64,000 bases of DNA from assembly GCA_963704645.1 (NCBI GenBank), contig OY969926.1, positions 320,001-384,000 on the forward strand, in the 5' to 3' direction. The position numbers were made by a program, and so were the translations under genes. The DNA is from an uncultured bacterium (GTDB lineage: Bacteria > Patescibacteriota > JACMRA01). The notes beneath the pieces were generated by a model. The model searched no databases and was not told the DNA's origin. It saw only the letters and a program-made list of their open reading frames with translations. Numbering within the stretch: the stretch's first letter is position 1; every line of letters begins with the position of its first letter. Positions 47,888-50,819 of this stretch are shown here, piece after piece.

Positions 47888-49315
47888 ATGCCAGATGCTA
47901 TAAATTCTAAAGATAATAATAAATCTGTTAATTCTTCTAATAATTCAAGACCAAACTCATTTGATTTCCCTAACAATAAAAAGCCAAAAGAAGGTAAAAA
48001 TTTCTTCCAAAAAGTTGGCGATTTCTTTAGATTAATTGGAATTTTAATCATTTTAATTTTATTAGCAGTTAGTTCTTTGTTTGCATTTTTGGTAATTAAT
48101 CCTGATCATGAATTTAGTAAATGGATAGTAAATAACACTCCAATTAACCGTATTTTGGGTTTAAATACAAATAAATCAGACGACAAGAAAACTGAACCTG
48201 CTGCAATTAATAATTTGCTTGGGTTAAATAATGACAATCAAAAATACGCTTTCGCCCCTGAAACTTCTACTAAAAGCACAACTGCAGTTGTTAATGAAGT
48301 TCTACCTTCGGTAGTTTCAATTTTGGTAAAGTCTAAGAGTACAGCAAGTAATGGTTCTGTTTTTGCTGGAACTGGTTACATTGTAGATAACACCGGACTA
48401 GTTGTAACGAACAAACACGTTATTGCTTCAACTTGTGGCTTGTCTAATGCTTCGGCAACAATTATGGCGGTAACTTATGACCAAAAAGCTGTACCGCTAA
48501 CTTTGCAAAGCGTTGATCCAATAAACGATATCGCTATTTTAAAAATGAGTAATGCGCCAACTAATTTAACTCCGGTTAAGTTTGCAGACAGTAACCAATT
48601 ACAACTTGGAGCTGAAGTTATAGCTATTGGAAACGCACTGGGTGAATTAGACAACACTGTTACTAAAGGTATTATTTCTGGTTTAAATAGAAACTTAGAT
48701 TACCCAGATTTAGACACTTGTACAGGCAAAAAAGTTAATACAAATGGTTTAATTCAAACTGATGCAGCTATAAATAAAGGCAATTCTGGCGGTCCACTTT
48801 TCGATTCTTTTGGAAGGCTTGTAGCGATGAATACTTTTGGTGCTACAGAAGGTGAAAACATAGGGTTAGCAATTCCTTCTAACTTAATTAAATCTGGTTT
48901 AGAAAGTTTTTCTAAGAACAACAAAATTTCTAGGGCCAGACTTGGTGTAACTAGCCAAAGCATTGACCCATTTACTAAGCAAGCCTACGAACTACCTTTA
49001 GATTACGGAGAGATTATTTTAGCAAGTAGTAATATAGTGCCAGCTATAGCAAGTGGTTCAGCTGCAGAAAAAGCTGGATTAAAAGAGGGTGATATTATTT
49101 TAGAAATAAATGGAGAAAAACTAGTTTCTAGTAATTCAAACCCAGCACCACTTCGCAGAGCTTTAAGTTCTTTAGAACCGAACACAAAAATTACTTTAAC
49201 TGTTTTGAAAGTTAAAACAAGGAACGCCAATATATTTAGCTATCAGGAAAATTCTGAAAAAATAGAAATAACTTTAGGCGAAGTTAGTGTAGATTTAGCT
49301 AATCCGCAGAAGTAG
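47888..49315 (+). CDS. htrA: HtrA/DegP-like membrane-anchored serine protease with PDZ domain
   Basis: TNKHV, DIAIL, QTDAAINKGNSGGP, SAAEKAGLKEGD. Confidence 0.93.
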   Translation: MPDAINSKDNNKSVNSSNNSRPNSFDFPNNKKPKEGKNFFQKVGDFFRLIGILIILILLAVSSLFAFLVINPDHEFSKWIVNNTPINRILGLNTNKSDDKKTEPAAINNLLGLNNDNQKYAFAPETSTKSTTAVVNEVLPSVVSILVKSKSTASNGSVFAGTGYIVDNTGLVVTNKHVIASTCGLSNASATIMAVTYDQKAVPLTLQSVDPINDIAILKMSNAPTNLTPVKFADSNQLQLGAEVIAIGNALGELDNTVTKGIISGLNRNLDYPDLDTCTGKKVNTNGLIQTDAAINKGNSGGPLFDSFGRLVAMNTFGATEGENIGLAIPSNLIKSGLESFSKNNKISRARLGVTSQSIDPFTKQAYELPLDYGEIILASSNIVPAIASGSAAEKAGLKEGDIILEINGEKLVSSNSNPAPLRRALSSLEPNTKITLTVLKVKTRNANIFSYQENSEKIEITLGEVSVDLANPQK

Positions 49316-49349
49316 TAAAACAAAATATCCCCCTTTAGGGAGGATTATC

Positions 49350-49379
49350 TTGAAAATAGCCAATTGTATATGATACAAT
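49350..49379 (+). promoter_or_regulatory. Sigma70-type promoter reading into an ORF-free structured region
   Basis: TTGAAA-18 bp-TACAAT with extended -10 TG, just after the hairpin ATCCCCCT-TT-AGGGAGGAT (49327-49345) that ends htrA. Confidence 0.6.
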
Positions 49380-49860
49380 GGCAGGGTGGTAAATTTTGCT
49401 TTACTATGCTAGCTAGATATTTCTAGCAAATTCAAATTCAGTTCATCTTTAGACTAACTGACAAGTCTTGTCCAAGTTTACAACTAACACAATAAAGATT
49501 ATGTGAAAGTTTTAGGTTAATCCTAGAGCACAAGGTGAAAAAGTGCTTTTAGTAAACTTGCTCGAGAGGTCCAGTAACTCGTTAGTTACGGCAATTGCTT
49601 TATAATTAGAATGAGTAAATCGATACTAATTGCAAAGCAAACTTTTTCTAGTTTTAAATCTAAAAAATAATTACTTTGTTTAGCAAAGTAACAACCCCGA
49701 TGGTTATTGGCCATGTAGACCGATTATTGGTATGCTCCAACCAGCTTGATTCGTGTGTTGTGTAAGCCCGTGCTACACTATCAATACAACCTATAGAATC
49801 ATCTAAGTTGTATTCAATTAATAGCATCAAATTTGCTCTTCGTCAAATTACTATTTCCAA
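49380..49860 (+). ncRNA. Putative large structured ncRNA (~480 nt), family unassigned
   Basis: No ORF of 60 aa or more; more than 10 stems, a multibranch domain closed by CAAGTTTAC/GTAAACTTG, complementary 5' and 3' ends, G-U pairs favouring the + strand, upstream promoter. Confidence 0.6.
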
Positions 49861-49982
49861 TGTTTTGTGTTGAAGTGGTGCATCCCTTCCCAACAAGTAT
49901 AACATCAAACTGCTTTATCAAATATATACTTTTGGGCTGGCAAGTTTTGTCATGGTATATTTACCATGTTGAATTAAATAGC

Positions 49983-50819
49983 TTAAAGACCCACACTTTC
50001 GTTTCTTTTTAATCCTAGTTTTAGTATTAACTTAGACAAAAAGTACAACACCAAGCACCAAAATATTCCTCCTAAAAATACGTAGATTGTTTCAAGCCAG
50101 GTATATTTTCCAAGGTAAACTTGCATTGGGTGATAAACTATAAAAGACCAAGGTAAAATCTGTAAAGAAGTTCTTAGCCAGTCTAAGGTAATTAAATTAT
50201 AAGGGAAAATTACACCCAAAATTAAGGGTACCATGTTTTCATATAAATTGGCTTGTCCGTAAATTGTAACCGTCCAAAAAGATGTTAGGCCAAGTATAAA
50301 AGCTATAAAATATCTAATTAAAATTGCCACACCAACAAGTAAAATCAATAAAAATATATTTAGTGGGTTAAAATTTAAAACTAATTTATCTGGAATTAAA
50401 AAGAAAAGCGGGAAAAGAATAATTGTATAATAAATAAAAATTCTTAAGGTAAAACCTGTTGTTATGAAAAAATTGTATGTAAGTAGTGAAATTGGTAAAA
50501 TTAAACTTTTAGCAATACTTCCATGCTCAATACTACCGCCCAAAGACCAGTAAATTGTGTTGGTTGTAATAACAAAAAGAATTACTCCTAAAATTAAGTT
50601 GGTAATAATTTCAGATGAACTATTGGTATAATTCCAAATTAAAACAGCCGAATAAATACTAACTGTTTGGCCTAGAAAATGTAGCAAATTGTTTACGAAA
50701 TATTTCCCATCCACTTTATAAAAATATTTCACAACATACCACCACTTGTAATTTTTACCCAAAAGTTTTTCCAGAAAGGTAGTCGTTGTATTCATATTTA
50801 ATTCTATTTTTAACTTCAT
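49983..50819 (-). CDS. ABC-2 family (DUF990-like) transporter permease
   Basis: IEHGSIAKSLILP, LTSFW, GVIFP, LPW...YHPMQVYLG; C-terminal GLKRNESVG. Confidence 0.8.
   Translation of the reverse strand: MKLKIELNMNTTTTFLEKLLGKNYKWWYVVKYFYKVDGKYFVNNLLHFLGQTVSIYSAVLIWNYTNSSSEIITNLILGVILFVITTNTIYWSLGGSIEHGSIAKSLILPISLLTYNFFITTGFTLRIFIYYTIILFPLFFLIPDKLVLNFNPLNIFLLILLVGVAILIRYFIAFILGLTSFWTVTIYGQANLYENMVPLILGVIFPYNLITLDWLRTSLQILPWSFIVYHPMQVYLGKYTWLETIYVFLGGIFWCLVLYFLSKLILKLGLKRNESVGL

Follow-up and report, generated by a model that had tools for sequence, protein, structure and literature searches.

A conserved large structured RNA in the gap downstream of htrA in a Patescibacteriota genome, a candidate stand-alone noncoding RNA gene

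The intergenic locus and its conserved structure

The window analyzed here is a stretch of 64,000 nucleotides from an uncultured bacterium of the phylum Patescibacteriota (JACMRA01; GenBank assembly GCA_963704645.1, contig OY969926.1, positions 320,001 to 384,000 of the forward strand), and the element in question is a large structured RNA located in one of its intergenic gaps. The gap, which an earlier note on this DNA had described as a 667-bp space free of open reading frames (ORFs), is indeed present at 49316-49982, between htrA (47888-49315, plus strand), which encodes Trypsin_2 and PDZ domains, and a convergently oriented ABC-2 membrane gene (49983-50819, minus strand); both flanking genes thus point into the gap and no gene follows the RNA on either strand. 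The gap is ORF-poor, with mechanical ORFs of only 31-59 amino acids, and the longest one inside the RNA (42 amino acids; 49586-49714, minus strand) is cut short by a stop after 7 codons in the one other genome of the genus, hereafter the congener, whose RNA locus lies on record L011. No ORF of the gap is conserved between the congener and the window genome (a single contig, C1, of 1,272,640 bp), and a small-ORF reading was dropped on this ground; in addition, indels of 1, 2, and 11 nt between the two genomes rule out a reading frame, which argues that the RNA block is not coding.

The stems listed in the earlier note can all be found: GCTAGA/TCTAGC at 49412-49427 (the variable minus-strand hairpin H2 described below), CAAGTTTAC/GTAAACTTG at 49473-49481/49552-49560, which encloses three hairpins, GTAACT/AGTTAC at 49574-49589, an imperfect long hairpin at 49595-49640, TTACTTTG/CAAAGTAA at 49671-49691, ATGGTT/GGCCAT at 49700-49714, and AATACAAC/GTTGTATT at 49783-49814. 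Two further structural claims did not survive, namely the end-to-end pairings, which need 49849-49857, a segment outside the conserved block and not kept in the congener, and the proposal that G-U pairs point to the plus strand, since wobble-only pairs were found on both strands. The comparison with dinucleotide shuffles that had been suggested was carried out, and both strands beat the shuffles, with z-scores of -3.2 to -5.6: the segment 49380-49900 gives -3.15 on the plus and -4.06 on the minus strand, while the conserved core gives -4.24 on the plus strand and the minus strand with its terminator -5.61, in a set that further holds -2.61 (plus) and -5.65 (minus, with terminator).

A BLAST search of 61 relatives with the gap as query returned one real homologue, that of the congener, with 81% identity over 407 nt. 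Identity between the two genomes is high from 49318 to about 49725 and collapses beyond, so that the extent of 49350-49890 proposed earlier gives way to a conserved unit at 49318-49725 and a variable 5' leader reaching to about 49811. With all identities measured in the same way, the conserved block is 85.0% identical between the two genomes and RNase P RNA 85.8%, htrA DNA is 65.9% identical (64% at the protein level), and the leader, between the block and the promoter, 56.6% over aligned positions. Differences fall in 14 of the 170 paired columns versus 67 of the 238 unpaired ones, and the unpaired core columns are themselves 72% identical (171/238) versus 57% for the leader. The minus-strand consensus of 85 pairs in 13 helices, which was fitted to the same two sequences later scored on it, pairs in 170 of 170 cells; nine of its pairs have changed, five on both sides and four on one side via wobble, and all nine are still paired, with none broken. 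When the partners are slid by 1-3 columns, pairing is seen in 31-44% of cells with zero or one double change, and when 14 changes are placed randomly, zero broken pairs arise in 1 of 200,000 trials.

The circularity of that fit tempers the structural reading, as do two further points. The covariation comes from two species and two or three close strains, and hence from few events; and when the minimum free energy (MFE) structure of one species is applied to the other, either strand keeps 10-12 changed pairs and breaks 12-13, the broken ones mostly in variable hairpins. Far less support comes from this unbiased cross-species test than from the fitted consensus, and it gives no ground for choosing between the strands. 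The close-strain contigs, obtained from four public DNA runs and termed X2, X3, and X4, add a compensatory C-G to U-A change in hairpin H2, a G-U to G-C change in hairpin H9, and loop changes in hairpins H0 and H1, together with two disruptive changes. On this comparative evidence the locus is a real, strongly conserved RNA selected for its structure, and the earlier proposal of a large structured RNA is upheld by the compensatory changes and the conservation seen against the congener.

Strand and anatomy of the predicted transcript

Genome-wide, the stable-RNA genes of the window genome carry a uniform cTTGACAa -35 element, mostly 36-43 nt before the mature 5' end, with weak and variable -10 boxes, and they end in short terminators that open with the C-rich arm and close with a U run. 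TTGAC is found within 90 nt upstream of 32 of the 43 transfer RNA (tRNA), transfer-messenger RNA (tmRNA), and RNase P RNA genes, versus 5.7% of random windows.

On the minus strand, upstream of the conserved block, a -35 hexamer TTGACG (49846-49841) is followed after 14 nt by an extended -10 element, TGC-TATTAA (49826-49818); it aligns with TTGACA at the homologous place in the congener, where TGC-TATATT follows at the same 14-nt spacing within otherwise diverged sequence. On both strands of the genome together (2 x 1.27 Mb) there are 15 occurrences of the composite TTGACR-N13-15-TGnTAnnnW, a rarity that is overstated because the pattern was defined after the site had been seen, and looser versions are commoner in the genome. 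The best promoter-like site of the congener's region is again on the minus strand (TTGACA-17-TATATT, 11/12, with TG). Terminator-like sites within the gap are confined to the minus strand in both species: a 1.3-kb scan of the window genome gives four, three of them in the gap and the fourth, also minus, at 50231-50212, and the scan of the congener places three of three on that strand. The terminator hairpin with its UUUUGUUU shows the same C-rich-arm-first style as the tRNA-gene terminators of the window genome, and its U-tract coincides with the left edge of the conserved block despite the different contexts in the two genomes. For the same region, the RNAalifold consensus energy is -66.15 kcal/mol on the minus versus -56.52 kcal/mol on the plus strand; the MFE of the congener's block is -112.3 versus -96.4 to -99.8 kcal/mol, a minus-strand advantage of 12-16 kcal/mol; and at four pairs a one-sided substitution leaves pairing intact on the minus strand only. 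Because the TTGAC promoter, the terminators, the sites in the congener, the consensus energy, and the minus-only wobble changes all favor it, the minus strand is the likelier one, and we consider it probable that the RNA gene is transcribed from there, convergently with htrA.

The earlier note had instead given the RNA a promoter of its own on the plus strand, TTGAAA-18-TACAAT (49350-49379), from which the same RNA would start near 49386 and run for some 340-480 nt towards the ABC-2 gene. We hold this orientation to be unlikely, while acknowledging that a number of observations speak for it and weigh against a minus-strand gene, to which the post hoc definition of the promoter composite may be added. 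The plus-strand site scores 10/12 with a TG extension in the window genome and its hexamers are unchanged in X2-X4; several pairs are wobble-only on the plus strand, which has G-U pairs at helix ends; an extension of hairpin H1 on that strand reads G-U, A-U, and G-C across the window genome, the strains, and the congener; the core of the window genome taken alone folds 2.6 kcal/mol better on the plus strand (-84.2 vs. -81.6); and the base skews lean marginally the same way (G>C and A>T). Against a minus-strand gene it also counts that no RNA run was among the public runs found to hold the stretch. The compensatory changes are strand-neutral. Yet the corresponding site in the congener is TTGAGA-16-TACGCT, which the scan does not list; TTGARA is common (1.23 per kb per strand), whereas the stable-RNA genes of the window genome use TTGAC; and no plus-strand terminator is listed in the gap of either species. 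Moreover, the consensus energy is worse on the plus strand, and a plus-strand transcript would leave unexplained a perfect, conserved minus-strand terminator and U-tract that sit at the block edge in two different contexts. With promoter and terminator conserved on the minus strand, the earlier choice of strand, based on G-U pairs and a single promoter-like site, is probably mistaken; the promoter and terminator grammar of the genome, taken together with the second species, points the other way.

On the minus strand, then, the proposed noncoding RNA (ncRNA) gene spans about 490 nt (49318-49811), its ends set by the conserved promoter and terminator and its start placed near 49811 by the predicted position of the -10 element. 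The variable 5' leader (49726-49811), which includes the hairpin at 49783-49814, holds five strain differences and is followed by the conserved structured core (49318-49725). The core begins with hairpin Ha (GGUC/GGCC, 49709-49721), invariant in both species, and hairpin H10 (UACUUUG/CAAAGUA, 49672-49690), with an invariant stem and a loop that differs between species. An A/U-rich linker separates H10 from the long hairpin H9 (49595-49640), the distal part, or tip, of which is deleted in the congener; in H9, two pairs have changed on both sides in a compensatory way, and one G-U pair has become A-U, where X2 and X3 have G-C. Hairpin H8 (49571-49591) presents a conserved UAACGA loop on a stem that is rebuilt in the congener as a 7-bp perfect helix instead of 2+5 bp with a bulge, and between it and the four-way junction runs a conserved junction strand containing CUCGAG. 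The four-way junction (49473-49560) comprises the 9-bp closing helix H4 and, inside it, hairpins H7 (49527-49547), H6 (49513-49525), and H5 (49482-49511); three of the domain's pairs show compensatory changes on both sides, and a U-A pair has turned into U-G.

Downstream of the junction, hairpin H3 (49438-49461), with its UAAA loop, lies within a fully invariant stretch, and the variable hairpin H2 (49412-49427) is replaced by a different hairpin at the same place in the congener; in strain X4, H2 has one compensatory C-G to U-A and one disruptive change. Hairpin H1 (49389-49404) has five invariant base pairs and a variable loop. The ACCCU strand at 49383-49387 is predicted by RNAalifold to form the 3' strand of a long-range helix, P1, with GGGGU at 49694-49698. 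P1 may close the core; it is invariant, which makes covariation uninformative, and it competes with a local hairpin, Hb (49692-49706). In hairpin H0 (49359-49382), which on the plus strand overlaps the -10 box of the promoter-like site discussed above, the strain differences either lie in the loop or preserve a minus-strand U-G pair. The transcript would end at an intrinsic terminator (49318-49352) made of a 13-bp stem (49352-49321) with an inner CCUCCC/GGGGG hairpin, followed by UUUUGUUUU; a U-A to U-G change in the congener's copy remains paired only on the minus strand. The plus-strand site TTGAAA-18-TACAAT overlaps both the terminator base and H0. Outside the conserved RNA, in the interval from the stop codon of the ABC-2 gene to the RNA promoter, a 76-nt segment (49898-49973) has an 82% identical copy at C1:524937-525012 and contains a CATGGTA...TACCATG hairpin.

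Known RNA families and distribution

At gathering thresholds, cmscan with the 4227 families of Rfam 15 reports three tRNAs only in the window. At E<=10, the segment 49250-50050 yields noise only (mir-1422, U4, and RAGATH-22, at 14.6-18.3 bits), and the congener's homologue yields only snoZ196 at 19.3 bits, likewise noise. The RNA therefore matches no known class even at this permissive threshold, and the exclusion of tmRNA and signal recognition particle (SRP) RNA in the earlier note is borne out by cmscan and ARAGORN, with RNase P RNA and 6S RNA excluded likewise. RNase P RNA (RF00010) had been suspected from a GGTGAAA-like loop and was dropped, as the locus gives no match and the real gene lies at C1:315718-316057 (151.9 bits, above the 100 bits set for membership); ARAGORN finds no tmRNA (RF00023) in the window, the real gene being at C1:286415-286889 (49.4 bits, tag VPDKVAVYA). 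6S RNA (RF00013) has no match at the locus or anywhere in the genome, and in place of its rod of about 180 nt with a central bubble the consensus fold is multi-branched, with at least 13 helices over about 400 nt. A riboswitch or cis leader was set aside in view of the flanking genes, which point into the gap and are replaced by others in the congener.

SRP RNA (RF00169, RF01854) has no match at the locus or in the genome, and RF00169 matches in 0 of the 61 relatives. Of its protein partners, Ffh and FtsY, nothing is detected in the window genome either with the models PF00448 and PF02978 (Pfam SRP54 and SRP_SPB) and TIGR00959 (NCBIfam ffh) or by phmmer with the E. coli Ffh and FtsY sequences, and phmmer controls for SecY, SecA, YidC, FtsE/X, DnaA, RpoA, SmpB, L19, TrmD, GrpE, and S16 were all found. 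Across 41 genomes (the window genome and 40 sampled relatives), PF00448 gives only short P-loop-like matches. An SRP RNA reading was rejected because, with Ffh and FtsY missing, it would have no protein partner; by these homology searches the genome appears to be without SRP altogether. A search of the literature on SRP loss in the Candidate Phyla Radiation/Patescibacteria returned no statement of such loss, and passages of one article (PMC10768705) concern host genes. The genome has 33% GC, the standard code, and 41 tRNAs, and completeness estimates in the family range from 64 to 93%. The E. coli proteins L30 and LpxC also find no phmmer match in it, an absence that, judged from sequence, fits a Patescibacteria-type lineage without proving it.

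The large RNA families OLE, GOLLD, ROOL, raiA, and HEARO, whose models we take to be present in Rfam 15, were likewise rejected, since cmscan gives only unrelated noise below 20 bits, different in each species. Their characteristic neighborhoods are oap genes, prophage or tRNA, raiA, and IscB; nothing of the kind was seen among the immediate neighbors scanned in either genome, and there was no phage match. OLE sits with oap genes, whereas the present RNA has no conserved neighbor gene, and ROOL and GOLLD are often prophage-borne, whereas the present RNA has no phage link. The RNA fails all known-family tests and most fittingly counts as a new class of a known kind, the large structured bacterial ncRNAs, and a general literature search on large ncRNAs showed no paper describing it. 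It resembles OLE, ROOL, and GOLLD in its length of several hundred nucleotides, its dense multi-helix junctions, its noncoding nature and lack of a known biochemical function, and the conservation of both stems and unpaired stretches; it differs from them in having no covariance-model match and in being confined to one genus of a small-genome lineage. These large ornate ncRNAs are the subject of PMC12286853, PMC12054373, PMC9723947, and PMC12265935. Two other articles (PMC10861870, PMC11109978) concern the raiA motif RNA and further orphan structured ncRNAs, which came to light in surveys of intergenic regions and, like the present RNA, are long, conserved, structured, gene-free intergenic regions without an assigned function; the present RNA matches no such model, is longer, and is far narrower in distribution. 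With RNase P RNA of the window genome it shares the size class (340 nt), the degree of conservation, and a stable-RNA-type TTGAC promoter, but no sequence or model similarity, and the two differ sharply in distribution, BLAST finding RNase P RNA in 24 of the 25 other family genomes and the present RNA in 1 of 25.

Neither BLAST nor a covariance model, R1, built on 49436-49592 with the four-way junction domain as its core, finds the RNA in the other 24 family genomes. As the RNase P RNA control was recovered in 24 of 25 genomes by the same BLAST procedure, mere divergence is an unlikely explanation for this absence. Eleven other genomes give BLAST matches at E<=0.01, all of them AT-rich, 21-34 nt long, and not real. 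R1 matches in 2 of 26 family genomes, the window genome and the congener; in a phylum sample of 151, in which the congener is not listed, it matches the window genome only; relaxing the model to E<=10 adds only noise of at most 16.8 bits; and among five loci from pattern scans of metagenome contigs (two) and species-representative genome contigs (three) it is present in one, which is the congener's own record. Collections of phage, plasmid, and viral contigs hold no match to the RNA. The homologue search recommended in the earlier note thus succeeded, but in a single congeneric genome, and among the genomes searched the RNA is, by these sequence comparisons, confined to one genus of small-genome bacteria.

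The RNA is single-copy and not syntenic. In the congener, a different contig carries the htrA orthologue, which has a tRNA gene after it, and the query used for the ABC-2 gene gave no match; the RNA locus of this genome is flanked by a divergent SBP_bac_5 gene and, on the opposite side, by two repeat units and a MazF-like ORF. Because the neighbors differ between the species, the RNA can be regarded as a self-contained unit, untied to htrA. The repeat units (L011 1895-2240) are tandem copies of about 90 nt that follow the RNA terminator on the same strand, towards the MazF/PemK-like ORF, each consisting of a TTGACA-17-TAGTAT promoter and, some 35 nt further on, a GUACCUCUGGAAACAGAGGU hairpin; the window genome has about five such units with 76-88% identity (among them C1:1114923-1116177, 512511-512599, and 465206-465236), and this multi-copy element might represent promoter-attenuator cassettes or a family of tiny RNA genes. 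Just past the RNA terminator, L011 1885-1915 resembles the 3' part of the RNA (the 3' arm of H1 and the ACCCU strand), a likeness that hints at a scar of recombination or a partial duplication next to the gene. A promoter-like site at C1:597965-597993, 155 nt upstream of a 472-amino acid ORF, has a spacer nearly identical to that of the congener's RNA promoter (shared GTAATTTTTAGTG).

Mode of action and meaning for the genus

From the observed structure, conservation, absence from known families, and narrow distribution, we lean, with modest confidence, towards reading the gap as a stand-alone ncRNA gene of about 490 nt, likely on the minus strand, the product of which acts in trans through a defined three-dimensional fold. 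In the model that we infer from sequence for its strand, ends, transcription, and mode of action, a σ70-type promoter would start transcription near 49811 on the minus strand, a poorly conserved leader of about 85 nt would be followed by a 400-nt core with at least 13 helices, among them the four-way junction domain and a possible long-range closing helix, and the intrinsic terminator at 49352-49318 would end the transcript head-to-head with htrA. The RNA would then act in trans, within a ribonucleoprotein or on its own in a structural or catalytic capacity, and would be neither a simple antisense regulator nor a cis leader. A trans action through the fold is suggested by the conservation of stems and many unpaired stretches over about 400 nt, with selection on the core as strict as on RNase P RNA, by the length, and by the multi-junction architecture; it counts against this proposal that no protein, target, or process is linked to the RNA. 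A minus-strand promoter and an intrinsic terminator are predicted in both species, as would generically be expected of a stand-alone ncRNA, and the independently transcribed large ncRNA of the earlier note is in this respect supported as a gene, its plus-strand placement excepted.

The predicted layout, with its own promoter, terminal hairpins, and terminator, would equally suit a small RNA (sRNA) that pairs with targets in trans or sponges a protein through a few exposed loops, without a global fold, and most sRNAs are similarly lineage-specific. We judge such a regulator improbable, given that the RNA has three to five times the length of a typical base-pairing sRNA, that its conservation is spread over about 400 nt, including the four-way junction, with no seed focus, and that no motif recurs among its loops. 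Nor is there any use of Shine-Dalgarno sequences that the CACCU-containing loop could mimic or mask: of the 608 ORFs with 200 or more amino acids, one has AGGAG among the 22 nt that precede its first ATG; the 5-mers enriched upstream of ORFs in this genome, with starts taken mechanically, are all A/T-rich. An anti-Shine-Dalgarno role of this loop was dropped for want of such a signal in the genome, and a search for motifs of the 16S 3' end found nothing. A cis-acting or passive element, whether a leader, a long 3' untranslated region belonging to the ABC-2 gene, or what is left of a decaying gene or mobile element, is more improbable still. Read-through from the ABC-2 gene is conceivable in that no terminator separates its stop codon from the RNA, and the species-dependent location, with a MazF-like ORF and repeats at the congener's site, is that of a variable region. 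Against this, the congener has no co-directional minus-strand gene upstream and, with the query used, no ABC-2 gene; the window genome offers no downstream gene that a leader could serve; the RNA is single-copy without phage, plasmid, or viral-contig matches; and a decaying remnant would not keep RNase P-level identity with its paired columns protected. Least credible of all is that the RNA belongs, as a highly diverged member, to a known family (SRP RNA, 6S RNA, RNase P RNA, tmRNA, OLE, GOLLD, ROOL, raiA, or HEARO). The roles of SRP RNA and 6S RNA are formally vacant in this genome, where neither is detectable, but no family reaches E<=10 consistently in both species, RNase P RNA and tmRNA are encoded elsewhere, SRP RNA would be left without Ffh and FtsY, the multi-branch fold is unlike the 6S rod, and absence from the other 24 family genomes searched would be odd for a housekeeping RNA.

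Few bacterial ncRNAs exceed about 300 nt and have an intricate conserved fold, and to our knowledge nearly every studied one is a ribozyme, a ribonucleoprotein core, or a self-assembling particle. As a tentative extension of the stand-alone gene proposed here, the RNA could be the founding member of a new class of large (~490-nt) RNAs with a complex tertiary fold, a class that arose in, or was acquired by, one genus of SRP-less, ultra-small bacteria; its members, again tentatively, might function as a ribozyme, as a self-assembling RNA, or at the core of a ribonucleoprotein, which would place them with OLE, ROOL, and GOLLD and not with the small regulatory RNAs. The narrow distribution and the few sequences, from two species, limit the value of the finding. 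If true, a new large RNA confined to one genus, in a 1.27-Mb genome with little idle DNA, would be a test case for the origin and role of such RNAs.

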